64,000 bases of DNA, from the IMG/VR virus record IMGVR_UViG_2595698357_000001, positions 64,001 through 128,000 of that record, one strand, 5' to 3'. Made by a program: the position numbers and the translations under genes. This stretch comes from a virus. Taxonomy: Duplodnaviria; Caudoviricetes. Positions 1 to 57,638 of the stretch are shown one piece after another; within the stretch, counting starts at the first letter, position 1; each line of letters starts with the position of its first letter. The notes under the pieces are model-generated. The model made no database searches. It was not told where the DNA came from and saw nothing but the letters and a program-made list of their open reading frames with translations.

Positions 1-114
1 GAGTCCTATCTCCCAGCCCATATGCTTAATCGCGACATCTTGTGCACCTACGGGCACACCATCCACTGGCGCATCAAATATGAGACCCCTGAGCTAGGCG
101 ACAATGTTCAATAA
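1..114 (+). CDS. 3' end of a hypothetical protein (partial)
   Basis: Frame 1 is open from base 1 (ESYLPAHMLNRDILCTYGH...) to TAA at 112-114. Confidence 0.5.
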   Translation, partial: ESYLPAHMLNRDILCTYGHTIHWRIKYETPELGDNVQ

Positions 115-132
115 CCCCTGCGTGGTTATTAT
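107..132 (+). promoter_or_regulatory. TTCAAT-N14-TATTAT phage promoter (putative middle class)
   Basis: Exact motif upstream of ORF 163; the same geometry recurs more than 10 times in the window. Confidence 0.7.
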
Positions 133-8266: not shown

Positions 8267-8698
8267 ATGGCCGGTCTCTTTGATTATCGTAATTCCCTCA
8301 TGGGCGACAACGCCGTTGCAGGGGTTAAGGTCAATCTTCTGGAGACCAACGACCCAGAAATCAAGAAGGGGTTTGACCCCTTCATGGTACGCCGGGCGTT
8401 GGCCCAGAGCAAAGATGTAATCGTGTGTGCTGAGGAGATGAACCTCTTACATCATGTCGACCCTTGGATGCAGTGGAATTACGCTTTTTATTCAATAAAG
8501 CCAAAAAAGCGTTATGATAAATGGTCTAAGAAAGGTGCGGCAAACGAGGACATCACTCTTTTGTGTGACTATTTCCAGATCAGCCCCGAGAAAGCCTCGG
8601 ATTATATGGGCTTCCTGTCTGAGGAAGTTATCGCGGAGATTCGTCTCCGTGTTGAAAACCAAGCGAACGACAACGTTAAACCTAAAAAGGTTAAATAA
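8267..8698 (+). CDS. 62: clamp loader small subunit gp62
   Basis: PFMVRRALAQ, KKRYDKWSK; synteny. Confidence 0.85.
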   Translation: MAGLFDYRNSLMGDNAVAGVKVNLLETNDPEIKKGFDPFMVRRALAQSKDVIVCAEEMNLLHHVDPWMQWNYAFYSIKPKKRYDKWSKKGAANEDITLLCDYFQISPEKASDYMGFLSEEVIAEIRLRVENQANDNVKPKKVK

Positions 8699-8731: not shown

Positions 8732-9223
8732 ATGCCCCGTAACACGCTGGATATACTGTCCTTGTCGGCAGTAGATCACGAAGATGAAATTTTGGATTGC
8801 CTGGTTGAAGTGGATCTGGACACCAGCAAGGCGCGCGACACGTTCTTCATGATCACCGAGACGCTAACCCGTGTCGGTGTCAACCCGAAGAACGAGGGTG
8901 GTGAGCCAAAGAATGTGCTGTACCAGACCTGCCACATTACCCAGCGCGGCGGGAAATATTACATCGTCCACTTCAAGCATTTCTATATGTTTGAGGGGCG
9001 GCGTAACGGGTTGTGCCGGGAGGACATCCTGCGCATGAACCGGATTATCCGTCTGCTTGAGCAGTGGGGTATGATCAAGATCAAGCACCCTGAACAGATC
9101 ACTGAGCTGGCCCAGCTGGCTCATATCAAAGTTGTAAAACACCATGATGCCGTCAACTGGACTCTGCTACCAAAGTACGATGTTCACAAGGGCAACCGTC
9201 AATCATCTCGGAGAGATAAATGA
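8732..9223 (+). CDS. regA: translational repressor RegA
   Basis: ETLTRVGV, LYQTCHI, YYIVHFK motifs. Confidence 0.9.
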   Translation: MPRNTLDILSLSAVDHEDEILDCLVEVDLDTSKARDTFFMITETLTRVGVNPKNEGGEPKNVLYQTCHITQRGGKYYIVHFKHFYMFEGRRNGLCREDILRMNRIIRLLEQWGMIKIKHPEQITELAQLAHIKVVKHHDAVNWTLLPKYDVHKGNRQSSRRDK

Positions 9224-11159: not shown

Positions 11160-11185
11160 TTCAATAACTGGTTATAGAGTAATAT
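11160..11185 (+). promoter_or_regulatory. TTCAAT-N14-TAATAT promoter
   Basis: Motif match upstream of the 11254 operon. Confidence 0.65.
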
Positions 11186-13770: not shown

Positions 13771-14526
13771 ATGTCCCGTAAAGGTAAACGCCTCACCCCT
13801 GACCTTCTGAAGTCCCGAATCGTGGATGTCCAGTACGAAGACCGCGAAGTGCTCGGGCAACGCATGGTCACGGCCAACTTCAAGATGGACAATGGGTTCA
13901 TCGTCTATGGGAAGAAGCCTAGCACCACCATTGACCCTGCTGGTTTCGACCCTGACATGGCGCGCAAGATATCCTATGAGAACACCCTGGAGCAACTCTG
14001 GGAGCTGGAGGCATATCGCGCGCTGTCTGAGTCTGCGTTGTTGGAATCCGCATGTGGTGTTGAAATCGACGTGTTCAAGTACAAGATTCGGTCGTCTGAG
14101 TTATTTGAGCACTACCAGCACCAGACCAAAGCGATATCTCTGACATTCCAACCCCCGGCTCGCGAAGGTTATATCACGGCAGAACCATTCACTGTCACCA
14201 TGTATCACCCTAACCAGTACCAGTCTTTCGAAGACCTGAACAACGCGGTTATCCAAACCGTGAAGGACTATCTTCTGAAGAACATCCCGGCTGATATTCT
14301 GTATCCGCCTCTCATCTATCGCATTGCCAAGACCGCGTACACGGCTCAATATGTGTACGCGTTGGCCGAACTGGATGGCAGCACACGGCCTTGGGAAGGG
14401 CTGAAAGAAGTGGAGCGCGGGGATATTTGCCGCCGGGTAGTCGAAATCGTGAAGGGGGAAGGTGGTCGATTCCCGCAGAGCCTCTCCAACAAGATATTCG
14501 TGGCGGTTGTGAACTCCTTCAAGTAA
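13771..14526 (+). CDS. Phage_gp49_66 (N4 gp49/Sf6 gp66)-domain protein with C-terminal extension
   Basis: MDNGFIVYG..STTIDPAGFDPDMARKISYEN..EQLWELEAYR. Confidence 0.75.
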   Translation: MSRKGKRLTPDLLKSRIVDVQYEDREVLGQRMVTANFKMDNGFIVYGKKPSTTIDPAGFDPDMARKISYENTLEQLWELEAYRALSESALLESACGVEIDVFKYKIRSSELFEHYQHQTKAISLTFQPPAREGYITAEPFTVTMYHPNQYQSFEDLNNAVIQTVKDYLLKNIPADILYPPLIYRIAKTAYTAQYVYALAELDGSTRPWEGLKEVERGDICRRVVEIVKGEGGRFPQSLSNKIFVAVVNSFK

Positions 14527-14596
14527 AATATGGGTTTCTATATGGCAACACGGTTATAATGGTCGTGTTGTCAATACTGACAGGAATCAATAACTT

Positions 14597-14803
14597 ATGC
14601 ACATTTTAGAAGAAGTGTTCAATGACATCAAGGCGGCTGCAGCTAATGCCCCGGCTTGTGTCCAAAACCCAGCATCTCAGGCTATGCTCCTGGGCCAAAT
14701 CGCCCATGCTCAAGCTGAGATGAACAACGCATTCGACCAGGCCAAGCGTAAGCTGATGGCTCTGCCGAAAGATCACCCTACCTTCCAATCACAGGACTAT
14801 TAA
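14597..14803 (+). CDS. hypothetical protein
   Basis: 68 aa, AGGA RBS, downstream of a TATAAT promoter. Confidence 0.65.
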   Translation: MHILEEVFNDIKAAAANAPACVQNPASQAMLLGQIAHAQAEMNNAFDQAKRKLMALPKDHPTFQSQDY

Positions 14804-14805
14804 CG

Positions 14806-16992
14806 ATGATCAGCTCTCTCGTCTTCAAAGACGCAGTCAAGACCCCAGCGCCAACCAACCACGTGTTTGTTGTGGACATCTCATATTCGATGTGCAATGC
14901 GTTGCCGAAGGTTCGCCAGCATCTGAAGAACAACCTGGCCACTCTGGTCAAGCAGGATGACACTGTTTCTATTCTGTACTTCTCATCCAAAGGCCAATTC
15001 GGCCCAGTGTTTGTCGGTGAGCCGGTTCGCCATGTCAGTGACCTAAGTGTAATCAACAGCGCTATCGACCGCTATCTGGTTCCGACCGGCTGCACCGGCT
15101 TTGTAGAGCCTCTTCAGCTGGCCGTAAGCACTGCTGCCGATCTGCGTGACAACGGCAACAATAACAGCCTGATCTTCATGACCGACGGTTATGACAACGA
15201 ATGGTCTGAAGCGAAGATCCTGGACGCCACAGACAAGCTGAATGCGGTTTATGACAGCGTCACCTTCATCGAATACGGCTGGAACTGTAACCGCCCTCTG
15301 CTGGTGAAAATGTCCGAACTGACCGGTGCGCTGCATGTGTTCGCAGAAGGTTGGGAGCAGTATGCCCCGGCGCTGGAAGAAGCACTCTCTTCCTCTGCAT
15401 CCAAGCGCATCAACATCGACGTTCCTGAGACCGCGTCTCATATCATCTATCTGGACGGCGATCGTGTGCAGGTCAACGTTGCCCACCTGGGTAAAGCGAC
15501 CATCCCTGAGCACGTGAACGAAGTCTGGGCTGTCAACAAAGACGTCGGCGCGTCGCTGGCGAACCAGAAGAACCAGACCCTGCTGTACTCCGTCCTGTTC
15601 TACTCCGTGCACATTATGGAGCCGGACCTGGCGTGGGCTGTTCTGAAGGTTCTGGGCGACGTTCGCTTCATTAAGCTGTACAACAACTGCTTCACCAAGC
15701 AGGACTACAGCACCTTCAAAGACCTGGTGCAGGCCGCTGTGTTCGACCCGAACGAGCGTCTGGCCGAAGGTTATAATCCGGACATGGTTCCAGACGAGAA
15801 CGCAGCGACTGTTGTTGACGTCCTGGAGTTCCTGGCTGAAAACGAAGTGTCCATCGACATGGGTAGCCCTCAGTTCACCTATCAGCGCATCGGTGCTGCG
15901 ACTACGCAGAAATCCGACGACACTGAAGACCAGTTGGCTGAGCAGATCGCCAATGCAGCCACTAAGGAAGAGCGCAAGGCTCTCGCTGCCGAGCTGGCTA
16001 ATGCACAGGAATGGACGCCGGAGTTCGTTCAGTCCCCTGGAGCGGCTCTCGTACCGGTGAACACGCTGGTTTACAACTCCAGCCGTCCTAACATCAGTGT
16101 GCAGACCAGCCGCCAGGGTACTATCCAAGTCCCGGCTGAAGTACGGGCGAAGTTCCCGACGCTGCCGGAAGTGTTGCCGAGCCACATCTATCGCAACTAT
16201 ACCATCGTGCGTGACGGCATCATCAACATGAAGTTGTTGCCTATCGACTGCAGCCCTGAACTGGTAGCTCAGCTGTTCGCCATGGGTGCCAAGGTCTACG
16301 GTAACGCAGGCAAATACGTCCTCGACCTGGCATCTGTGCCGTTGATCAACCGTGGTATGACCCGTGGTATCAAAGCGACCGAGCACTTCGCTGACTCCGT
16401 TCGCCTGGAAGATCTGAAAGCCCGTCAGAAGGTGCTGAAGTTCTACCGCGATGAGCTGGCCGGTCCGAAGTCGAACGCAGTTGGTCTGTCTGGCCTGTAT
16501 GGTCATGAAGCGGCCGAGTACCTGAGCAACCACGGCATCCGTGACTATGGCTTCTCACCGAAAACTCAGTCTGTAGAGAGCACTGACTTCTACTACAGCA
16601 AAGAGCTGAACGTGAAGATCAAAGGTCTGTCGTCCTTGCCGTCGGTTAATGCGGTGCGCACGAAGCTGGAGAAGGGTTCCAAGCTGAACGCAGGCGATGC
16701 CCTGATTGCCAAGCACCTGAAAGAGTACGATGACTTCATCAATAGCCCTATCGTCACCAAGGCGGCGGGTAAAGATAAGATCATCGATGCGTGGCTGCGC
16801 GACGAGGCCAAGGCTGCTATCCAGGAAGTTCGTGTCCTGAACAAGAAGCTGTCCAAGACCCTGTACGCCATTGTTGCCGGTCATGCCTGGTTCGCTGATC
16901 TGGACTTCGAAGACACCACTCTGGACGTGAAGGTTGACGGCGTGACTTACACCGTGACTGCAGTCCTGGAAGACAAAGAAGTCAAAATCTGA
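14806..16992 (+). CDS. von Willebrand factor A (VWA) domain protein
   Basis: MIDAS DISYS, conserved T (GCT), FMTDG in the N-terminal ~190 aa. Confidence 0.88.
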   Translation: MISSLVFKDAVKTPAPTNHVFVVDISYSMCNALPKVRQHLKNNLATLVKQDDTVSILYFSSKGQFGPVFVGEPVRHVSDLSVINSAIDRYLVPTGCTGFVEPLQLAVSTAADLRDNGNNNSLIFMTDGYDNEWSEAKILDATDKLNAVYDSVTFIEYGWNCNRPLLVKMSELTGALHVFAEGWEQYAPALEEALSSSASKRINIDVPETASHIIYLDGDRVQVNVAHLGKATIPEHVNEVWAVNKDVGASLANQKNQTLLYSVLFYSVHIMEPDLAWAVLKVLGDVRFIKLYNNCFTKQDYSTFKDLVQAAVFDPNERLAEGYNPDMVPDENAATVVDVLEFLAENEVSIDMGSPQFTYQRIGAATTQKSDDTEDQLAEQIANAATKEERKALAAELANAQEWTPEFVQSPGAALVPVNTLVYNSSRPNISVQTSRQGTIQVPAEVRAKFPTLPEVLPSHIYRNYTIVRDGIINMKLLPIDCSPELVAQLFAMGAKVYGNAGKYVLDLASVPLINRGMTRGIKATEHFADSVRLEDLKARQKVLKFYRDELAGPKSNAVGLSGLYGHEAAEYLSNHGIRDYGFSPKTQSVESTDFYYSKELNVKIKGLSSLPSVNAVRTKLEKGSKLNAGDALIAKHLKEYDDFINSPIVTKAAGKDKIIDAWLRDEAKAAIQEVRVLNKKLSKTLYAIVAGHAWFADLDFEDTTLDVKVDGVTYTVTAVLEDKEVKI

Positions 16993-16997
16993 CGCGG

Positions 16998-17043
16998 AAG
17001 CCCCCAACTGGGGGCTTTTCAATAACTGGTTGCATGGTATACT
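16998..17043 (+). terminator. intrinsic terminator overlapping a TTCAAT-N14-TATACT promoter
   Basis: AAGCCCCCA-AC-TGGGGGCTTTT followed immediately by the promoter motif at 17018-17043. Confidence 0.75.
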
Positions 17044-17888: not shown

Positions 17889-18147
17889 AGAAGACGTACT
17901 GGCTCAGGTAATCCGTTCCATCAAAGAGCTGTCGTACCACCACATCGGTGACAAACTGAATGTCGAGGATCCGAGCAAGCTGACCATCAATGACGACCTG
18001 TGGTTTGATGAGCTGGATCGCATTGAGCTGATCATGGAGCTGGAAGAGCACTATGAAATCGAAATCGACGATGAAAAGGTGGAAGCTGCCGTCACCGTCG
18101 GCGATGTGGTCAACCTGGTTGAAAAACTGGTGAACGAGCTGGGTTAA
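17875..18147 (+). CDS. acyl carrier protein-like protein (phosphopantetheine Ser replaced by Glu)
   Basis: DDLWFDELDRIELIMELEEHYEIEIDDEKVE...TVGDVV matches ACP helices II-IV. Confidence 0.85.
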   Translation: MAVNKEDVLAQVIRSIKELSYHHIGDKLNVEDPSKLTINDDLWFDELDRIELIMELEEHYEIEIDDEKVEAAVTVGDVVNLVEKLVNELG

Positions 18148-18194: not shown

Positions 18195-18249
18195 TAAGTT
18201 CATGAGGGGGCGATAACCGCTCCCTAACTTGAAAAGCAGGAACTATACG

Positions 18250-19095
18250 ATGGATATTAAAACTGAACTGGTAACCACCGCATCTTACCCTAACCGCATT
18301 GCTGAAGCCCTGACGACCCTGAGCCAGGCAACTGCAGCAAAGAAAATCTACAACGTAGATTTTGAAGCGACCAAGTCTACCCTGACCCGCGCCTTTGAGA
18401 AGCTGTACCAGGAACGCATTTCCAAAGTGCACCTGTGGGGCGGTCTGTGGGAGAAGCTGAGCGAAGCGGAAGAAGCGGTTTCTGGCGGCATCACCGTGTC
18501 CTCCATCCCTTCTGTACTGAGCGCGCTGAAAAAGGTTAAGGCGTACAAAGGCGAACCAACCCAGTTTATGAAAGACCTGAGCGAAGTGATTGAAGGCCTG
18601 GCTGCAGTAGCCACCGAAATCAACGAGCTGAAGCCGTTCATCGTTAAAGGCCGCAAGCCAAGCGGTAAAGAACCGGCTCCTGAGAACCCAAACAAAATCG
18701 TCAAAACCTGCGCCTGCTGCTTCCGCGCAATCGCTGTGGGCTCTGACGGCAAAATGGTTCACCACGGCTACCGTCGCCCAGGGGACGGCTTCCAGACTGC
18801 AAGCTGCATGGGCATTAGCTACCGCCCACTGGAAGTGTCAAGCGACGGCCTGGTCGCTCTGATCAAGTACATGGAAAAAGAGCAGGTTGAAGTGCAAGGC
18901 CGTCTGGACGAACTGGAAGCCAACGGCGCCAACATGGTAATGCAAAGCCACTGGGGAAAACCAGTTCCGCCGGGCGATGTGTCCCACAAAAGCCGACTGA
19001 GCTGCCTGAAACAGCAGCTGGCCGCACGTATTGATTCAATCGTCCGCAACCTGGTCAGCCTGAACACCAAACTGACCAACTGGAAACCAGAATAA
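18250..19095 (+). CDS. hypothetical early protein with Cys/His (Zn-binding) motif
   Basis: TCACCFR...MVHHGY..PG..QTASCMG. Confidence 0.8.
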   Translation: MDIKTELVTTASYPNRIAEALTTLSQATAAKKIYNVDFEATKSTLTRAFEKLYQERISKVHLWGGLWEKLSEAEEAVSGGITVSSIPSVLSALKKVKAYKGEPTQFMKDLSEVIEGLAAVATEINELKPFIVKGRKPSGKEPAPENPNKIVKTCACCFRAIAVGSDGKMVHHGYRRPGDGFQTASCMGISYRPLEVSSDGLVALIKYMEKEQVEVQGRLDELEANGANMVMQSHWGKPVPPGDVSHKSRLSCLKQQLAARIDSIVRNLVSLNTKLTNWKPE

Positions 19096-19101
19096 CCAAG
19101 G

Positions 19102-19162
19102 GGAGGCTTCGGCCTCCTTTTTATTGAATAAACCTTTACTTCTTTCAATAATCGCGTATTAT
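19102..19162 (+). promoter_or_regulatory. terminator followed by an early promoter with TTATTGAA/TTCAATAA inverted repeat
   Basis: GGAGGC-TTCG-GCCTCC-TTTTT then TTATTGAA...TTTACT...TTCAATAA...TATTAT. Confidence 0.75.
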
Positions 19163-19202
19163 TGAACTTGAGCACACCGCTCTTGAAATGAAGGAACTTT
19201 AC

Positions 19203-19524: not shown

Positions 19525-19974
19525 ATGTCACTCGTTAGCTCGTTCTTCGACTGGATGAACATAATCAATGGCCTGAGGATTCCCGTGGGGAACCTCGGGC
19601 TTTCTCGTTCTTCTATGCCACAAATCGACGATGACAAAGTCGATGCCTTCAAGGATTATCTTGATGGCGCGGGCGTGGAGGTCACAACCCCGCAAATCAG
19701 AATCAAAGACCTGCGGCTCACTCAGAACGAAGTCAACAAGATGAAGATCTGGTCGCTGATGAAACGCTATCGTCAGAAAAAGAGCGTCCAGCGGGTTTGG
19801 GTGTCGTCTGACAATTATGTTGTGGATGGCTCTCACCGCTTCATAGCAGCCCTGAACCTGGATGACAAACAGCGGCTCAAGGTCTACCAGGCGAACATGC
19901 CTGCGCTGGAGCTGGTGAAGCTGGCAAACCGGTTCCAGGGTGTCCGTCATCGCACTGTTTCTGACGCGAGATAA
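19525..19974 (+). CDS. ParB/Srx-like domain protein
   Basis: VSSDNYVVDGSHRFIAA motif. Confidence 0.75.
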   Translation: MSLVSSFFDWMNIINGLRIPVGNLGLSRSSMPQIDDDKVDAFKDYLDGAGVEVTTPQIRIKDLRLTQNEVNKMKIWSLMKRYRQKKSVQRVWVSSDNYVVDGSHRFIAALNLDDKQRLKVYQANMPALELVKLANRFQGVRHRTVSDAR

Positions 19975-20035
19975 TTATTCAATAACTTCATTCGGGGTAT
20001 GATTCTCAGTATTGAAATCAACTGAGGTCATCCCC

Positions 20036-21333: not shown

Positions 21334-21404
21334 CGCTTTCAATACCCACGCATCCAGTAATATAAGGGGACTTACAACAGTCCCCTTTCTTTTGGAGATT
21401 TATC

Positions 21405-23025: not shown

Positions 23026-23298
23026 ATGAGTCGTCAAAAACTGGTAGACCAAATCGCTGCCGATAATGGCATCACCAAAGCTGCTGCTGAAGCTGTAGTC
23101 CGTCAATTTACCGCTGGCGTAACCAACGTTCTGAAATCCGGCGACAAAGTGCAGCTGGTTGGCTGGGGCACCTTCGAAAGCAAACGCACCGAAGCCCGCC
23201 AAGGTCGCAATCCGCGTACCGGCGGCACCCTGACCATCGAAGCGAAAAACAAAGTGACGTTTAAGCCGGGTGAAACCCTGAAAGCTGAACTGAACTAA
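23026..23298 (+). CDS. HU-family histone-like DNA-binding protein
   Basis: VQLVGWGTF...ARQGRNPRTG...FKPGETLK. Confidence 0.93.
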   Translation: MSRQKLVDQIAADNGITKAAAEAVVRQFTAGVTNVLKSGDKVQLVGWGTFESKRTEARQGRNPRTGGTLTIEAKNKVTFKPGETLKAELN

Positions 23299-23436: not shown

Positions 23437-25155
23437 GTGGTTTATGAACAAAGTCACCCGGCGCTGAAATACATTGACCCAGGAATTCCCCTGGATGTCA
23501 TTGAAGAAAAGGCGCGCGCTCATTTCCCTTTCCCGTCTGCCAACCCCGGCCAGATGGAAGCAATTGTTGAAGCAATTGACGCCTACGTCAACAAGCGCAA
23601 GAAGCACGTGATCATCGAAGCCCCAACCGGCGTCGGCAAATCCCTCATTGGTATCACTATCCACCTTGTCCTGCGTGAGCTGGCGTTGGAGCAGAACCCA
23701 ATGGGGCAATTCCGCACGACGATTTCAACCCCAACCAAGGGGCTGCAAGACCAGTACGCCAAAGAGGACTGCGTGAGCATGGCGATCCTCAAGGGCAAGA
23801 AGAACTACCGCTGCCTGGTCAACAGCGACATCTATTACAACTCAATCCCCTGCCGCATGCAGTGCAAAGATCAGATGTGCTCGCCACGGCGTTGCCCGTA
23901 TGTGTCTGCGCGCAACCTGTGGTGTAATATCGCCGACCTGCGCTGCACCAACTCGGCCATGCTGGTTGAGATGTGTACGTCGTTGTGTATGATGCCGGGC
24001 AACCGGGCGGATTTCCTTATCCTGGATGAGTGTCATAAGATGCCCAACACGTTGCTGGACCATACCATCATGGCCTACGACCGAAGGATGCTGAAGGGGC
24101 TGGAGACGCTTCCTGGTGGTAAAGATATCATTGAGGGTGTTGAGTTCATCCTGAAGTACACAAGCGAGTACCAGCTTGGCGTTCTCTACACCCTTGACTC
24201 TACGCTGACCAACTTGTTCCCACTGTTGCTGGAGCAGGTTGAGAATCTTCTGGAAGTCCTGGATGATTGGATGGAACGTGAAGACCTGACTGATGTGCAG
24301 ATGATGCGATTGGCCGATATGGTTGACACCCTCCACAACCTGTCTGACTATTGCGGTATCATGGACAACACTCAGGCCAAGACCTTCATCGTTCACGAGA
24401 AGGAAGAAGGCATGATCACGTTCAAGGCCGTGTTGCCTGCTGACGTGTCTGAGTTCGGTATGTTCCGCAAGGCCGATTATTATCTCCACATGTCGGCCAC
24501 GATTTGTGGTATCCCGTCCTATGCTCATACCCTGGGTATCCGGTCTGATGACTACCACGCCATCCAGGTCGCCAACCCAATCCCGATTGACAACCGCCGC
24601 ATCAACTATCTCCCTGTCATGAAGGTGGCCAACCGCCTGGAAGATTTTGAGTACAAGCGCTTGGTAGAGAGCATTGACGACATCATTGAGCATCATGAAG
24701 GACAGAACGGTATCATCCACACCGTGAGCTACGAACGTGCTGAGAAGATGCAGCAATATTCCCGCTTCCGCCAGAACATCGTTGTGCCTCGTACCCGTAA
24801 GGCGTTGTTGGAGTCCCTGGACAATGCGATGCGAAACAAACGCCGAATTATCATTGCCAGCCCGGCCATGGTTGAGGGCTACGATTTCAAAGGCGATCTC
24901 AGTCGGTTCCAGATCATCATGAAGGTGCCATACAGCTTCTTGGGGGATCCCCTGGTCGCGCATGTGAACAAGATTGACCCATCGGCGTATTTCCGTGAGG
25001 CTATCCTGAGCATTGTGCAGATGGCGGGGCGGTCAGTGAGGGGAGTCGATGACCATGCGGACACCTACATCATCGACTCCTCATTTGAGATGCTGCTGGA
25101 GAGAAACGGTTCGTTCTTCCCCAGCTGGTTTGTTGATGCCCTGTTTGAGATCTGA
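23437..25155 (+). CDS. DinG/Rad3-family SF2 helicase
   Basis: EAPTGVGKS, Fe-S Cys cluster (NYRC...CPY), LDECH, MSAT, EGYDF, QMAGRSVR. Confidence 0.88.
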   Translation: MVYEQSHPALKYIDPGIPLDVIEEKARAHFPFPSANPGQMEAIVEAIDAYVNKRKKHVIIEAPTGVGKSLIGITIHLVLRELALEQNPMGQFRTTISTPTKGLQDQYAKEDCVSMAILKGKKNYRCLVNSDIYYNSIPCRMQCKDQMCSPRRCPYVSARNLWCNIADLRCTNSAMLVEMCTSLCMMPGNRADFLILDECHKMPNTLLDHTIMAYDRRMLKGLETLPGGKDIIEGVEFILKYTSEYQLGVLYTLDSTLTNLFPLLLEQVENLLEVLDDWMEREDLTDVQMMRLADMVDTLHNLSDYCGIMDNTQAKTFIVHEKEEGMITFKAVLPADVSEFGMFRKADYYLHMSATICGIPSYAHTLGIRSDDYHAIQVANPIPIDNRRINYLPVMKVANRLEDFEYKRLVESIDDIIEHHEGQNGIIHTVSYERAEKMQQYSRFRQNIVVPRTRKALLESLDNAMRNKRRIIIASPAMVEGYDFKGDLSRFQIIMKVPYSFLGDPLVAHVNKIDPSAYFREAILSIVQMAGRSVRGVDDHADTYIIDSSFEMLLERNGSFFPSWFVDALFEI

Positions 25156-26525: not shown

Positions 26526-27290
26526 ATGGGTATGCACTATGTTGACCGTGGTAAAACGGCAAAGATCTATTTCACCGACGAAGACAACGACAAAATTGTT
26601 GCGGTCTTGCGCGAGTGGATCCCATTAAAGAAACAGGCGATGGCGGAAGAGAAGCCCTTCCCGAAAGTCCCTGAGGTCGTCGGGGCTGCTGTCTACCAGA
26701 TAGTCCACAACACCAGCATGCGTTACAACTACCGTCAATATCCTTTCCGCGAGGACATGGTTGGTGATGCTGTCTACAACATTCTCCGTTATCTTCACAC
26801 GTTTGACCCGTTCCTGGTCGGAAAGAAGTCAGGAAAGATCAACTTTTTCTCATGGGTGACCATGTGTCTTGACCGCAGCTTCTCCAAGAAGATCGGCGAT
26901 GAAGAGACCCAGACGTACCTGAAATATCGCAGCTTTGAAGAAGTCGGCGGCTTCGCGGCGTTCAATGACGACCCTGACTTCCAGCAAAACGATTTCATCG
27001 AGAACACAGGCATCGCCATGGACTTCCGTGAGCGCATGGGCGAGTTCGAGCAGAAGCGTGAAGCCGCCCGTGAGAAGGAACGCCTCAAGGCTCAGGAAGT
27101 CAAGAACGCTCAGAAAAAGACCAACGTTTCAAAAGGATTAGCTCAATACCTCTCTAGAAGTAAAAATACCCCACCAACAGCAGATGCCATGGGCGATGAC
27201 GTACCCAACCCGGCCGAATACGAGTTTGACCAAACGTTGGGTGAATTCCCGGATCTGAAACCATCAAAGAGAGGTGTTAAATGTCAATAG
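26526..27290 (+). CDS. 55: late-transcription sigma factor gp55
   Basis: HYVD, YNYRQYPFREDMVGDA, FDP...NFFSW; precedes 47-46. Confidence 0.88.
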   Translation: MGMHYVDRGKTAKIYFTDEDNDKIVAVLREWIPLKKQAMAEEKPFPKVPEVVGAAVYQIVHNTSMRYNYRQYPFREDMVGDAVYNILRYLHTFDPFLVGKKSGKINFFSWVTMCLDRSFSKKIGDEETQTYLKYRSFEEVGGFAAFNDDPDFQQNDFIENTGIAMDFRERMGEFEQKREAAREKERLKAQEVKNAQKKTNVSKGLAQYLSRSKNTPPTADAMGDDVPNPAEYEFDQTLGEFPDLKPSKRGVKCQ

Positions 27291-36601: not shown

Positions 36602-37665
36602 AATCCTTAGACCACCAGTTCATCAACTATCTTTCACCCCGGCTGGACAAGTTCAGCTGGGAGCGCGCTAACCTGGCCAAGTTCCGTTGCCCATTGTGTG
36701 GTGACTCACAGAAGTCCAAGACCAAGCGGCGCGGGCACTTCTACTATGACAGCACGATTGACAGCTATCGGTTCAAGTGCCACAACTGTAACGAGCAGAG
36801 CGGATGGTCATTCGATACCTGGCTGGCCAAGTTTGACCCGACCCTCCATGAAGAGTATCTGTTTGAGAAATTCAAGATGGAGGGGGACCGCAGGAAGCCC
36901 ATCAAGGCGTTCATCGCAGAGCGGAAGGAAGTCCCCCCTCTTCCCAAAGAGGAACCAAAGGTCATCACGCTGCCGCCAGTACAGAAAGTCCTGGATGAGT
37001 CGCACCTGACCGGGATGCAGCGACTGGATACTCTGCCGGTTGATCATATGGCGGTGCAGTACGTCCTCGGTAGGAAGATCCCGGAGTTCTTCTTATCACG
37101 CATGTACTTCACCCACCACTTCCGCGACACGCTCCTCACCTTTGAGACGGACGCTGAGAAGCAGCGGCTGATACCCAACGACGCGCGCCTGGTCATGCCA
37201 TTCTGGGATGAGACCGGCCGCATGAAGGTAGTGCAAGGCCGCGCCTTCGACAGTGATGCTTTCCTGCGTTATGCGACAGTGAAGCCCAACGAGCATGACA
37301 CCAAGGTGTTCGGTGAGGAGCGGGTGAACCGGGAAAGGATGGTGTTGGTAGTTGAAGGTCCGATCGATAGCATGTTCCTTCCCAACTGCCTGGCATCGGC
37401 TGACGCTGACCTCCTGAGCGTGAAGGGGGACATCTACATCCCTGATAATCAGTACCGCAACAGGGAAGTTTGTCGGATTATAGAGAAGATAATTAACTCA
37501 GGGGTGAAGGTTGTTCTGTTCCCTCCCAACATTCCCTGGAAGGACATCAATGACATGGTGAAGGACGGCGGCATGACCCCGGCTGATATCATGAAGATGA
37601 TGGCGAAAAACGTCTTCCAGGGGCTGGCTGCTTCTCTTCGGTTCGCAGACCTCAGGAAGGTGTAG
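36598..37665 (+). CDS. 61: DNA primase gp61
   Basis: FRCPLCGDS...CHNC zinc finger; VVEGPIDSMFL TOPRIM; WKDINDM. Confidence 0.93.
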   Translation: MKSLDHQFINYLSPRLDKFSWERANLAKFRCPLCGDSQKSKTKRRGHFYYDSTIDSYRFKCHNCNEQSGWSFDTWLAKFDPTLHEEYLFEKFKMEGDRRKPIKAFIAERKEVPPLPKEEPKVITLPPVQKVLDESHLTGMQRLDTLPVDHMAVQYVLGRKIPEFFLSRMYFTHHFRDTLLTFETDAEKQRLIPNDARLVMPFWDETGRMKVVQGRAFDSDAFLRYATVKPNEHDTKVFGEERVNRERMVLVVEGPIDSMFLPNCLASADADLLSVKGDIYIPDNQYRNREVCRIIEKIINSGVKVVLFPPNIPWKDINDMVKDGGMTPADIMKMMAKNVFQGLAASLRFADLRKV

Positions 37666-37894: not shown

Positions 37895-37984
37895 TTTCTG
37901 AAATGGATGAAGGGCAGCGCCGGTTTGTCATTGAAATGTTGAGGGGTATTATTCCCCTCAATACTAATGACGAGGGAACTACCA

Positions 37985-38260
37985 ATGATCAAGATAACAG
38001 CAGAAACGAACCTGGCAACCGAGAATGAGCTGAAGACCGCTCACATGGTTGAGACTGTGGCCAACAAATATTATCGCCTGGAGGACTGCCTCCGGGAGTG
38101 CTATCCCAACATGATCGTGGAAGACCCCATCCTCATGATGCATGTTGAGATGATGGACACCTATCGTGACTCAGGCGATGTGGCTCTGGTCAACGCTCAT
38201 GCCAAGCGTGTCATGGTTCGTTTCCGTGAATACGCTGACAAATACTGCGAAGTTGAATAA
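37985..38260 (+). CDS. hypothetical protein
   Basis: GAGG RBS; GTCATT-N14-TATTAT promoter at 37927-37952. Confidence 0.7.
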   Translation: MIKITAETNLATENELKTAHMVETVANKYYRLEDCLRECYPNMIVEDPILMMHVEMMDTYRDSGDVALVNAHAKRVMVRFREYADKYCEVE

Positions 38261-38326
38261 AAGTTCAAACTAAATTTCCTTGTAAGTCAGCCAGTTATTG
38301 AAAATTCCGTAAAAAGTCAAAAATAT

Positions 38327-38368
38327 TTATTGAAAACGCTTTACGGAATTCAATAACTGGCGTATATT
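38327..38368 (+). promoter_or_regulatory. early sigma70 promoter TTTACG-17-TATATT with inverted repeat
   Basis: TTATTGAA-AACGCTTTACGGAA-TTCAATAA. Confidence 0.75.
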
Positions 38369-38435
38369 TAATTTCAACGAGGCGGGATTGACCCACTCAC
38401 ACTTGAAACGAAACAACTTTACAGGAAACAAAATC

Positions 38436-38945
38436 ATGACTAACTCCATCGAAATCATCACCAACGGCACCGTAGCTTTCGAACTGAACCGTGACCTGAC
38501 TAAAGCAGCTCTGTGGGAACAAGCACAGGCAGCAGGTTTCAGCGGTGGCCGCACCTCCTTCATGAACCTGCTGAGCGGCAAAGCAAAAGCGGCTTGCGGT
38601 TTCGAAATCCAAGTTCAAGTGCCAGTGACCAAGGCTGAGAAAGCCGCCCGCAAGGTAGTGAACAAAACTGAAGCACTGGCCACCCTGGCTGCGACCCTGA
38701 AGCGCGAAGTTCACGTGGTGGAAGCGAAGACCGAGACCTACGGCACCGTGTCTACCTCCAAAGGCCGCATGCAGGTGAACCCAATGAACAACGGCACTTT
38801 CAGCCTGATGTTCTTCGCCGCCAAAGGCACGGCGCTGGTTGAAGTTGCTGACCTGCTGGGTGAAGGCAACGTGAAGTCCCAGTACATGACCCTGGGCAAG
38901 AAGTCTGAAGCAGACGTCGCAGCCATCATCGCCAAACTGGCTTAA
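38436..38945 (+). CDS. early protein, putative DNA-binding regulator (HTH-like N-terminus, MotA-CTD-like C-terminus)
   Basis: Strong codon bias, AGGA RBS; domain calls are by eye only. Confidence 0.7.
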   Translation: MTNSIEIITNGTVAFELNRDLTKAALWEQAQAAGFSGGRTSFMNLLSGKAKAACGFEIQVQVPVTKAEKAARKVVNKTEALATLAATLKREVHVVEAKTETYGTVSTSKGRMQVNPMNNGTFSLMFFAAKGTALVEVADLLGEGNVKSQYMTLGKKSEADVAAIIAKLA

Positions 38946-39003
38946 CACCACCGCCGGGGGAAACCCCGGCAACCCAAACCCCTTTGAAACGCAGGAGCTA
39001 CAC

Positions 39004-39327
39004 ATGTCCAAGATAAATCACGCCCACGCTGCAGTATTTGAATCTTTCATCTCTAACGTCGGCTTCCAGTTCACAAAGGAAGAACACGAAGCGGCCTGTG
39101 AAAACAACTGCACGCGGGGCGCATACATTGACGTGTTGCTAGCTGAGACCAAAGGGGATTTGACTCTCTATATCAGCGCCACCATCAACCGCATGTGGCT
39201 GTTTGAAGGCGACAACGTTGTCCTGTACGTTGACGACTTCCAGTGGGATGAGGGCGGTGCTGAGTACAACGGCACACTGGTGGCCAACGCCTACTCCAAC
39301 GGCTTCACCAAGTACCTGTGGAACTAA
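39004..39327 (+). CDS. hypothetical protein
   Basis: AGGAG RBS. Confidence 0.7.
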   Translation: MSKINHAHAAVFESFISNVGFQFTKEEHEAACENNCTRGAYIDVLLAETKGDLTLYISATINRMWLFEGDNVVLYVDDFQWDEGGAEYNGTLVANAYSNGFTKYLWN

Positions 39328-39336
39328 GGAACTGAA

Positions 39337-39546
39337 ATGCTGACCATCAAAGCAGTGAACAAGGCGATAGCCGAAGCAGGCCACAAAGAGACCCTGGAAC
39401 GCGGAGATGGTTATTTCTATTTCCGGGGCGGTGAGGCAAACAACTGGATTGCAGTATCAGTCCACGTCTACGCCCTGAACCACCTAACTCTAGACCAGTG
39501 GCTTGAGTCCCTGGAATCTTTGAGGGAGGCAAACAAGTCCAGCTGA
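39337..39546 (+). CDS. hypothetical protein
   Basis: AAGGA RBS; RGDGYFYF motif. Confidence 0.7.
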   Translation: MLTIKAVNKAIAEAGHKETLERGDGYFYFRGGEANNWIAVSVHVYALNHLTLDQWLESLESLREANKSS

Positions 39547-41327: not shown

Positions 41328-41438
41328 ACCCACTCCGTTTTTATGTTATAAAACAACCGCTTCAATAGCATTGAGGCGGTTTATAATATCCACCTGATTA
41401 AATACCGTACCACAAAAAGTAGAACCCTGAGGATCGCT

Positions 41439-51812: not shown

Positions 51813-52044
51813 TTATGCGTGCAAGGGCTGCGAACATACGTTCCAGGCGCGTAAACCCTGTGCTGAACGGCACGAACCGACTATCTCGCCTTGTCCTGAA
51901 TGCGGCGGTGAGATCTATATTCATGTTGGCAGTCCTATGATTGTCAGCGGCGTCAAATCACCCCACTCAGCACCGTCTGGTTTCAAAGACGTCCTGCGTG
52001 AGATCAAGAAGGGGAGCGGGCGTGGGAGTACAATCGATGTCTAA
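51799..52044 (+). CDS. FmdB-family zinc-ribbon protein
   Basis: MPTYDYACKGC...CPECGG. Confidence 0.85.
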   Translation: MPTYDYACKGCEHTFQARKPCAERHEPTISPCPECGGEIYIHVGSPMIVSGVKSPHSAPSGFKDVLREIKKGSGRGSTIDV

Positions 52045-52273
52045 CCCACAGAAGCTCATCACCCCTGAGTCCTTCTCCGAAGCCGTCATGGTGCGCGCGA
52101 TGGATAAGAAGGAGAGTCTCCTGGAAAGCATGGCCCATGTTGTTGAAGAGCTAGACATCGATGAGGCCAGCATCAAGAAAATGGTGACCGCGCCACTGTA
52201 TTCCCGCCTGGAAGCCGAATGCAATGACAGCCGTCTGTTGAAAGATAAACCACGATCAAAGAAATTGATCTGA
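52037..52273 (+). CDS. 33: late transcription co-activator gp33
   Basis: FS..V......S.LE...HVVEELDID....KM....L..RLEAE; synteny before gene 32. Confidence 0.8.
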   Translation: MSNPQKLITPESFSEAVMVRAMDKKESLLESMAHVVEELDIDEASIKKMVTAPLYSRLEAECNDSRLLKDKPRSKKLI

Positions 52274-56623: not shown

Positions 56624-56665
56624 TTATTGAAAACACTTTACGGGACAGAAAACACCAAGTATATT
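56624..56665 (+). promoter_or_regulatory. early sigma70 promoter TTTACG-17-TATATT with upstream TTATTGAA half-site
   Basis: Matches the 38327 promoter (TTATTGAAAAC.CTTTACGG). Confidence 0.7.
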
Positions 56666-56705: not shown

Positions 56706-57638
56706 ATGCCATACATTCTTCACTCTGATACCAACCAAAAGTTTGACATCACCAACAAGTCTGCTGAAGACGTACAGGCTGAACTGCGCGCTGCAGGTCT
56801 GGTCATCGGTAACGTCACCGTCCGCAAACTGGTCTCTGGCGAAATGAAGCAGGCCTCCGGCTACGAAGTAGTTGAAGACCTGACCGAAGAAGAGCAGAAC
56901 GAAATCAACGAAGCCCTGGCAAAAGTTGAAACCGAAAAGGCTCTGGCCACCAACGGCGCGGACAGTGAGCTGACTTCCAACGTACCGGAAACCCCGAAAC
57001 CGGGCGGCACCGTACTGAACGAAAAATCCGACCTGCTGGACCATGCTCTGGCGTCTTTAGACGCGACGGGCGACGCTCCTACCGCTGAAGTTGATGAAGT
57101 TGAAACCCCGGAACAAGCGGCTCGTGCTGCCGAAATCCGCTCTCGTCTGCTGGGCGCTGATACTGGCGCGGCTGTATCTAACGTATCTGCGGCAGCAGCC
57201 AGCAAAGACGACGCGGCGCTGAACACGGCGCAGGAAGCCCTGAAGGCGAAAAACCTGACCCCACAGGCAGCAGCTGAAGAGCGCTCCCGCCGTCATAACA
57301 AGCGTGAAGACCTGGTTGAGCAGGCGCGCGCCGGTGTTCAGGCTGAGCTGATCAAAGCAGTTGAAGACGGTGTGGTTCCAGGCGTGTTCCTGAACTACAT
57401 GAACCCAGACCATCGCTGGTTTGAGTTCATCATCACCGAACGTGCTGATAAAGAGAAGCCGAACGCGCGCACCAATACCTATATTGACGTCGCACCCATC
57501 GCTTCCGGCGGCTACGGCTTCAGCCTGTACGTGAACGGCAAGTCGTTCACCAAGCGCCAGAAGGTGAAAGGCACCGTGGCTGAGACCGTTGCGGAAATCA
57601 ACAAATGGTTGCCGGAAATCCTGAAGACCGTGAACTAA
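56706..57638 (+). CDS. early protein, paralogous N-terminus with ORF 38436; Ala/Glu-rich linker
   Basis: AAG..G.....LVSG..K.A.GYE shared motif. Confidence 0.8.
   Translation: MPYILHSDTNQKFDITNKSAEDVQAELRAAGLVIGNVTVRKLVSGEMKQASGYEVVEDLTEEEQNEINEALAKVETEKALATNGADSELTSNVPETPKPGGTVLNEKSDLLDHALASLDATGDAPTAEVDEVETPEQAARAAEIRSRLLGADTGAAVSNVSAAAASKDDAALNTAQEALKAKNLTPQAAAEERSRRHNKREDLVEQARAGVQAELIKAVEDGVVPGVFLNYMNPDHRWFEFIITERADKEKPNARTNTYIDVAPIASGGYGFSLYVNGKSFTKRQKVKGTVAETVAEINKWLPEILKTVN

Follow-up and report, generated by a model that had tools for sequence, protein, structure and literature searches.

A conserved phage protein as a candidate reader of the TTCAATAA promoter box

What switches a ViI-like phage from early to middle transcription? 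The timing of early and middle genes in these phages is an acknowledged gap: Kutter et al. (2011; PMC3184105) state that the ViI-like phages are without MotA, AsiA or any other obvious middle-mode mechanism, and that an informatics search gave them no early promoters. An initial annotation of the DNA studied here also remarked that no MotA is known to be annotated in such phages. We approached this question through a 64,000-nucleotide (nt) stretch of phage DNA (hereafter the window), which is bases 64001-128000 of the 157,834-base virus record IMGVR_UViG_2595698357_000001 (estimated to be 99% complete), and in particular through its gene P0001, at window positions 38436-38945, and the related gene P0002, at 56706-57638. 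Two sharply defined promoter classes that are kept across genera, and a named candidate factor, are now available. The promoters carry the TTCAATAA box or its inverse TTATTGAA, and that P0001 reads this box is a good but unproven hypothesis.

Two promoter classes built on one box

Promoters of the first kind, which we call class B, have the box upstream of a -10 hexamer and no -35. The genome has 19 copies of the pattern TTCAATAN-N11-13-TAnnnT, where 0.33 are expected and 100 first-order Markov simulations reach 2 at most. When all 63 TTCAATAN sites are considered, their spacing to a -10-like hexamer shows a sharp peak at 12 (11 sites, with 2 at 11 and 2 at 13). In the window, TTCAAT-N12-16-TAnnnT is found 14 times where 1.70 are expected, and the activator-type promoter box that the initial annotation had noticed there is thus confirmed. 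An unbiased count of the hexamers that lie 10-16 nt upstream of -10-like hexamers gives the same answer, since CAATAA is the most enriched (21 versus 1.0 expected), followed by TCAATA (27 versus 1.5) and TTCAAT (19 versus 1.6). The N11-14 variant of the pattern has 24 matches, 14 of them wholly outside an approximate map of open reading frames (ORFs) that covers 94% of the genome; most such sites stand 3-56 nt 5' of a co-oriented ORF, and several directly follow a GC hairpin. Genes behind class B promoters include rIIA, nrdA-nrdB and a MazG-like gene that lies, in the same orientation, just 5' of the topoisomerase II genes, and are of prereplicative type. Individual sites, in window positions, are as follows (aa, amino acids):

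107..132, plus strand: class B, TTCAATAA-N12-TATTAT, without a -35
8491..8518, plus strand: class B-like, TTCAATAA-N14-TATGAT, inside an ORF of the approximate map, 213 nt 5' of a RegA-like gene
11160..11185, plus strand: class B, TTCAATAA-N12-TAATAT, intergenic, 35 nt 5' of a 680-aa gene
17018..17043, plus strand: class B, TTCAATAA-N12-TATACT, immediately past a GC hairpin
19978..20003, plus strand: class B, TTCAATAA-N12-TATGAT
21338..21363, plus strand: class B, TTCAATAC-N12-TAATAT
41361..41387, plus strand: class B, TTCAATAG-N13-TATAAT, 51 nt 5' of nrdA, its place conserved in CBA120 and D509

The second kind, class A, is a sigma70-type promoter with a box in front of its -35 (TATTGAA-N2-9-TTTAC(T/G)-N16-18-TAnnnT). 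For TTATTGAA itself the window count is 17, where 1.22 would be expected, and none of 100 shuffles reaches that count. There are seven class A sites in the genome, all on the plus strand, of which six are in the window (18155, 19122, 32741, 38328, 45176 and 56625) and the seventh is at genome position 14570. In five of the seven, (T)TCAATAA, the inverse of TTATTGAA, also occupies the spacer, with 6-8 nt between it and the -10. P0001 and P0002 both have a promoter of this class: in each, TTATTGAA lies 5 nt upstream of TTTACG-N17-TATATT, so both genes do stand behind early-type promoters that carry the site, as the initial annotation had held. The spacer of the P0002 promoter has no inverted box. 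That of P0001 has one, and the imperfect inverted repeat at this promoter encloses a third box, TTATTGAA at 38327; the boxes at 38295 (plus), 38327 (plus) and 38349 (minus) amount to three in 62 bp. The features concerned are:

38291..38362, no strand: imperfect inverted repeat, CCAGTTATTGAAAATTCCGTAAA at 38291-38313 facing TTTACGGAATTCAATAACTGG at 38340-38362 (read from the sequence)
38327..38368, plus strand: class A promoter of P0001 (sigma70-type, presumed early), TTTACG-17-TATATT, 9/12 matches; TTATTGAA at 38327-38334, -35 TTTACG at 38340-38345, inverted box TTCAATAA at 38349-38356 within the 17-nt spacer, -10 TATATT at 38363-38368
56624..56665, plus strand: class A promoter of P0002; TTATTGAA at 56624-56631, TTTACG at 56637-56642, TATATT at 56660-56665

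Six genes could be placed behind class A promoters, all of them without a known function, and no gene was placed for the site at genome position 14570. Several class A genes are among the most codon-optimised of the genome (the gene at 18229-19095, for example, ranks eighth of 157). A second three-box TTATTGAA/TTCAATAA cluster is present at the class A promoter at 19121-19166, where the -10 TATTAT overlaps another TTATTGAA.

Phages CBA120 and D509 have the same box and promoters of both layouts. In CBA120 the promoter of orf104, the orthologue of P0001, reads TTATTGAA-N6-TTTACT-C-TTCAATAA-N8-TATTAT, that of nrdA reads TTCAATCC-N12-TATAAT, and there are further class B sites. Vibrio phage D509, whose P0001 homologue is 40% identical, has TTCTATAG-N12-TATAAT at nrdA and (T)TCAATAA-type boxes 11-13 nt before TATAAT in several gaps between genes. 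VAP7, with a homologue that is 30% identical, has a different recurrent -30 element, AACTTCAAAAGTTT, which is present in at least five gaps and precedes the -10 by about 9-12 nt. A box that drifts in this way with the phage lineage favours a phage-encoded reader, whichever protein that may be, over the conserved host sigma factor, and we ranked the host-factor reading of the box lower on the strength of the VAP7 difference. The VAP7 element is near-palindromic (locus positions 9037-9099, 17939-18000, 37505-37575, 1517-1627 and 24314-24436 were examined), and a separate VAP7 promoter set, that of the P0001 homologue included, carries palindromes of the ACGTGAYC...GRTCACGT type. The promoters of the P0001 homologues in D509 (19777-19886) and Kuja (19827-19991) have AT-rich inverted repeats upstream of the -35, with half-sites TTCAA/TTGAA or ATTCA/TGAAT, and these repeats hint at conserved autoregulation.

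The promoter architecture is robust and appears to be undescribed. The promoters described for AG3 are only of two kinds, eight that are sigma70-like and some late ones of T4 type (PMC3121705), and the LIMEstone report gives five 'middle' promoters, assigned by similarity to T4 boxes (PMC3296691). In a 2024 review of the family the words promoter, transcription, sigma, MotA, AsiA and gp55 are all absent (PMC11721090). We found no paper on the TTCAATAA box or on a MotA-like factor in Ackermannviridae in a literature search that mostly did not cover subscription journals and so leaves their absence unproven. A preprint on Htm (10.64898/2026.10.06.757011) was set aside as irrelevant, since it concerns a T4-like Mosigvirus.

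P0001, its family and its paralogue

P0001 is a conserved gene. Its ORF encodes 169 aa and contains the strings quoted in the initial annotation, and residues 1-169 align with positions 1-162 of the 162-position PHROG 3764 profile (E 6e-71), so that P0001 is a full-length member of that family and the ATG at 38436 is favoured over the TTG at 38388 as its start. P0002 is likewise a full-length member of PHROG 3905 (E 9.3e-130) and contains its quoted strings; both PHROGs are without a functional description.

38436..38945, plus strand: P0001 coding sequence, 169 aa, pI 9.4, PHROG 3764
38953..38970, plus strand: GC-rich hairpin, 7-bp stem and GAAA loop, 8 nt past the P0001 stop, without a T-run (read from the sequence; missing from the output of the terminator scan)
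56706..57638, plus strand: P0002 coding sequence, 310 aa, PHROG 3905, codon-usage rank 2 of 157

Relatives of P0001 were found by tblastn in 354 phage records, with at least 80% of the query matched in 351. The hosts of these phages are Salmonella (164), Vibrio (70), Klebsiella (45), Escherichia (29), Dickeya (19) and others, and the four carriers whose taxonomy was looked up (3M, CBA120, Kuja and VAP7) are all Ackermannviridae. Window positions 37900-39400 share 98.4% identity with Serratia phage KNP4 and 92-96% with 2050H1 and 3M, the last of which is classed in the genus Miltonvirus of that family.

Database families give P0001 no name. At E up to 10 it matches nothing in Pfam, and P0002 is likewise without a credible Pfam family; the 32 members of the P0001 family that make up our alignment A1 (the short forms P0016, 131 aa, and P0032, 125 aa, were omitted) yield scattered weak matches only, and among the 25 families listed of the 35 matched at that threshold there is no MotCF, CesT, YbjN or NUMOD-type family (PF07453, PF22083). 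Searches of PDB sequences with P0001 and P0002 singly and with a profile returned chance-level rows (E >= 0.1, for example ribosomal P0). P0036, a 2675-aa bacterial repeat protein that matched P0001 residues 89-149 in 16 stretches (E 4.7e-4), was left out of the alignment; by inspection its repeats look like those of cadherin type, and the hit looks like a repeat-inflated chance match.

The two genes stand out in codon usage. When the 157 ORFs of 100 codons or more are ordered along the main codon-usage axis, the gene for the major capsid protein comes first, P0002 second and P0001 third, and P0001 uses CTG for 14 of 14 Leu, TTC for 7 of 7 Phe and AAC for 9 of 9 Asn. P0001 is probably a very abundant early protein. 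A search of RNA runs turned up none with half or more of the words looked for; the best share was 0.30, in contigs guessed to be RNA. An antisense ORF of 204 aa (38397-39011, minus strand) spans the whole P0001 gene, exceeds its length and takes its place in the approximate ORF map; it is probably a by-product of the strong bias of P0001 codons toward G or C at the third position.

The N-terminal motif that the initial annotation had seen in both proteins reflects true homology of their N-domains, as judged by sequence comparison: BLASTP aligns it with 11 of 28 residues identical (E 4e-4), PHROG 3764 touches P0002 residues 28-81 (E 0.041), and hhalign of A1 against 25 P0002-family sequences (A2) gives E 6.4e-5 at a probability of 64%, which rises to 92.8% (E 3.9e-7, 51 columns) when only the N-domain columns are used. 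Beyond this domain P0002 has a middle part that is long, acidic (pI 4.4) and in part disordered, followed by a basic C-domain that is Lys/Arg-rich and very conserved in A2; its AlphaFold2 model has a predicted local distance difference test score (pLDDT) of 72.7, with the acidic middle disordered. The weaker C-terminal motif, also proposed to be common to both, is not significant by sequence (BLASTP E 1.7; hhalign of the C-domains, 0.4% over 16 columns), but in both models it lies on the hairpin that joins the third and fourth strands. This common position, together with 14 entries in common among the top-50 lists of VIA-wide structure searches with the two C-domain models, makes a single fold for both C-domains plausible. 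The VAP7 protein gp106 (14097-15098, 333 aa), annotated as a SprT family zinc-dependent metalloprotease, matches the P0001 model structurally in the viral models of BFVD (E 2.3e-4), and may be a P0002-type paralogue under a doubtful name.

Predicted structures and the comparison with T4 MotA

The AlphaFold2 model of P0001 (mean pLDDT 88.3) consists of an N-domain, a basic linker and a C-domain:

38436..38621, plus strand: N-domain, about residues 1-62; two strands, a helix-turn-helix (HTH; helices 23-33 and 39-47) and strands
38664..38942, plus strand: C-domain, residues 77-169; helix, four strands, helix, strand, helix

The ten ESM Atlas rows nearest to the N-domain are mostly homing-endonuclease clusters: seven carry HNH, GIY-YIG or NUMOD families, of which six have a NUMOD-type family and the seventh HNH only (template modelling score, TM, by query 0.49-0.56 over 45-59 residues). 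A BFVD search with the P0001 model also brought up NUMOD1 and intron-endonuclease entries, at low probability, and the PDB structure searches were dominated by C-domain matches and hardly probed the N-domain. In predicted structure this domain is like NUMOD1 and the NUMOD-like module of I-HmuI, and its motif is also of the G-x-T/S-x-x-x-L-x-x-G-K type of NUMOD1 modules; unlike NUMOD1-type homing endonucleases, P0001 has no attached nuclease domain. The resemblance to NUMOD1/IENR1 HTH modules that had been suggested by eye is thus suggested by the structural neighbours as well, and not by Pfam profiles. One homing endonuclease, I-TevI, doubles as a transcriptional autorepressor by means of its DNA-binding region.

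The C-domain is basic across the P0001 family (median pI 9.36, range 7.95-9.87 in 32 sequences), and the initial annotation had likened the C-terminal 90 or so residues to the double wing of T4 MotA. Foldseek of the P0001 model against the PDB places the DNA-binding domain of T4 MotA first (1kaf_D; E 0.013, probability 1.00, TM by target 0.50, 101 columns) and the full-length MotA of the sigma-appropriation complex second, and by two aligners no solved structure matches P0001 residues 73-169 better than the C-terminal domain of MotA (92 of the 103 residues of 1kaf_E), although the structural scores are all in the zone that the tools themselves describe as possibly a mere common arrangement. 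Among BFVD viral models, the entries that follow the family's own members are the MotA proteins of Erwinia phage Cronus (E 5e-3), Acinetobacter phage Acj61 (0.055) and Escherichia phage Bp7 (0.14). Modelling and structure search thus brought up both MotA and NUMOD-type neighbours of P0001 unprompted.

The likeness to T4 extends to the promoters. T4 MotA (PDB 1KAF, 5JLT, 6K4Y) is, like P0001, an early two-domain protein of about 170-210 aa. According to a review (PMC2988021), the MotA box stands in place of the -35, with its centre at -30 and 12 +/- 1 bp between it and the -10, and T4 middle promoters include those of rIIA, rIIB and gene 39; the same layout, with the box 12 bp from a strong -10 and no -35, is present in this genome, where class B promoters stand before genes of a similar kind, rIIA and nrdA among them. 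There are differences as well. The MotA box, (a/t)(a/t)(a/t)TGCTTtA, is not the TTCAATAA sequence; MotA acts with AsiA, and no AsiA partner (PF09010) is detected here; and codon usage implies a far higher abundance for P0001 than for T4 MotA.

Which protein reads the box

The reading that we prefer is that P0001 is an early, heavily expressed, sequence-specific regulator that reads the box, activates class B promoters and dampens class A promoters, its own included; we put it forward tentatively, as a serious possibility that falls short of probable. P0001 would combine a homing-endonuclease-type N-terminal HTH with a basic C-terminal alpha/beta domain of MotA-like double-wing shape. It would recognise TTCAATAA at about 20 promoters, 12 bp upstream of a good -10 and with no -35, and would there replace -35 recognition so that the host sigma70 polymerase could start, as it does with T4 MotA at MotA boxes. 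At seven early promoters, that of P0001 among them, the boxes flank or invade the -35 and spacer, half a helical turn out of register, and P0001 bound to them might dampen these promoters later in infection. The gene, its conservation, the domain models and the two promoter classes with their geometry are established here, whereas DNA binding by P0001, its specificity for the box, its contact with the polymerase and the direction of regulation are inferred. The three box copies at the gene's own promoter count in favour of this reading, as does the different box of VAP7, which a co-evolving phage factor fits better than a host sigma factor. The basic C-domain also speaks for it, as do the two modules, each of a kind that binds DNA site-specifically in its known settings, the prereplicative type of the genes behind class B promoters, and the lack of Pfam MotCF, MotA_activ and AsiA matches in the genome.

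A number of observations weigh against it. The structural match to MotA is below significance and, in the PDB list of the second aligner, within 1 Z of Atg10 and SycT; in a VIA-wide search MotA is tied with Med17, Atg3 and UEV; and the ESM Atlas entries nearest to the C-domain are YbjN, type III secretion system (T3SS) chaperone, DUF1801 and GIY-YIG-associated clusters (TM by query 0.58-0.69). The C-domain sheet has five strands in the model versus six for MotA (PMC2988021), whose double wing has three helices over the sheet, the N-domain, of strands and two helices, differs from the five-helix sigma-binding domain of MotA, and the P0002 model has no MotA among its top 50 by Foldseek or in the VIA-wide search. 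Neither sequence nor profile shows any similarity to MotA: with a threshold of E 10, PF09158 (MotCF), PF09114 (MotA_activ) and PF09010 (AsiA) have no match anywhere in the genome, which is 99% complete, and hhalign of A1 against 25 aligned MotA sequences (A3; T4 motA and relatives, from 87 collected) gives a probability of 1.1%, the C-domains alone 1.7% and the N-domains 0.4%. A resemblance of P0002 to MotA (RWFEF...NTYIDVAP versus RIFGYK...N-YIDI) was also rejected as non-significant (5.7-11.9%). These Pfam and hhalign negatives place P0001 outside the MotA family by every sequence criterion. What is left of the double-wing suggestion is the best solved fold match, and P0001 may at most be called MotA-like in its C-domain, its N-domain being modelled as another fold. 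Our literature search found nothing that joins the double wing and YdcD. In addition, 40 kb of Kuja, whose homologue is 24% identical, shows no clear -30 box and no TCAATA enrichment, and codon bias at the level of the capsid gene suggests bulk amounts of P0001, beyond the apparent need of a factor with about 27 sites, although T4 MotA is itself a weak binder (PMC2988021).

The box could also have another reader, such as P0002, the HU homologue or an unrecognised factor. A PHROG scan of 182 of the 197 approximate ORFs (7 that cross locus borders and 8 others lay outside it) named as transcription or DNA-binding proteins only homologues of gp55 and gp33, an HU-family protein, a member of a 'histone family DNA-binding' PHROG that has no Pfam match, and a RegA-like translational repressor. 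Three of these have the following places in the window:

23026-23295, plus strand: HU-family protein, 90 aa, Pfam Bac_DNA_binding (E 4.1e-29), PHROG 379
26526-27287, plus strand: homologue of the late sigma factor gp55, PHROG 234
51941-52270, plus strand: homologue of the late co-activator gp33, PHROG 254, Pfam Trans_coact

With gp55 and gp33 homologues present, late transcription looks T4-like; middle control does not.

The abundance of P0001 might mean that it serves in bulk as an early architectural or DNA-binding protein of little sequence specificity, perhaps with a preference for phage-modified DNA or the host nucleoid, and that the TTCAATAA promoters are read by another factor. Its third place of 157 in codon usage, near the capsid gene, fits such a role, as do its basic character and the resemblance of both of its halves to DNA-holding modules; but the phage already encodes an HU-family protein, the box is clustered in three copies at the P0001 promoter, and NUMOD-type and MotA-type modules are site-specific DNA binders in their known settings, and we regard this explanation as rather doubtful. 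The homing-endonuclease modules among the N-domain neighbours, and the GIY-YIG/T5orf172 nuclease cluster that is the top Atlas neighbour of the C-domain (TM by query 0.69), could instead indicate a domesticated homing-endonuclease DNA-binding region that serves some other DNA transaction, such as origin marking, recombination or nuclease protection. P0001 adjoins the primase gene, and the box might then be read by an unrecognised protein or by P0002, which has the common N-domain, equal codon optimisation and a C-domain that is rich in Lys and Arg and very conserved. Neither a nuclease domain nor a target site is evident, however, and such an origin would leave the promoter logic of P0001 (its box-rich own promoter and the MotA-box geometry) unexplained, so that we think it improbable.

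Quite unlikely, too, is a role as an adaptor in host takeover, by which some abundant host protein would be sequestered or redirected, with no direct DNA role, and in which the C-domain would be a protein-binding module like those of secretion chaperones and YbjN. Its Atlas neighbours give this idea its shape, but there is no family-level sequence match between P0001 and the T3SS chaperones SycT, SycH and CesT, YbjN/AmyR or DUF1801, and the Pfam search described above, in which CesT and YbjN were absent among the families listed, points the same way. The P0001 C-domain also differs from secretion-chaperone-like folds in being basic rather than acidic, in being fused to an N-domain that looks like a DNA-binding HTH, and in its phage early-gene context.

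If P0001 is the box reader, the scheme can be carried further. Ackermannviridae would then possess a MotA-like switch, built from other parts and independent of AsiA, in which P0001 reads TTCAATAA at -30 of about 20 middle promoters, turning them on, and, from the inverted boxes on either side of their -35, shuts off seven early ones, including its own and that of P0002, and in which P0002 may dock on the same polymerase surface; taken as a whole, this is a possibility that we would call unlikely at present. Should it be true, it would be a second, independently assembled phage case of a -30 box reader that replaces -35 recognition, and it would supply portable promoter and activator parts for phages that are widely used in biocontrol.

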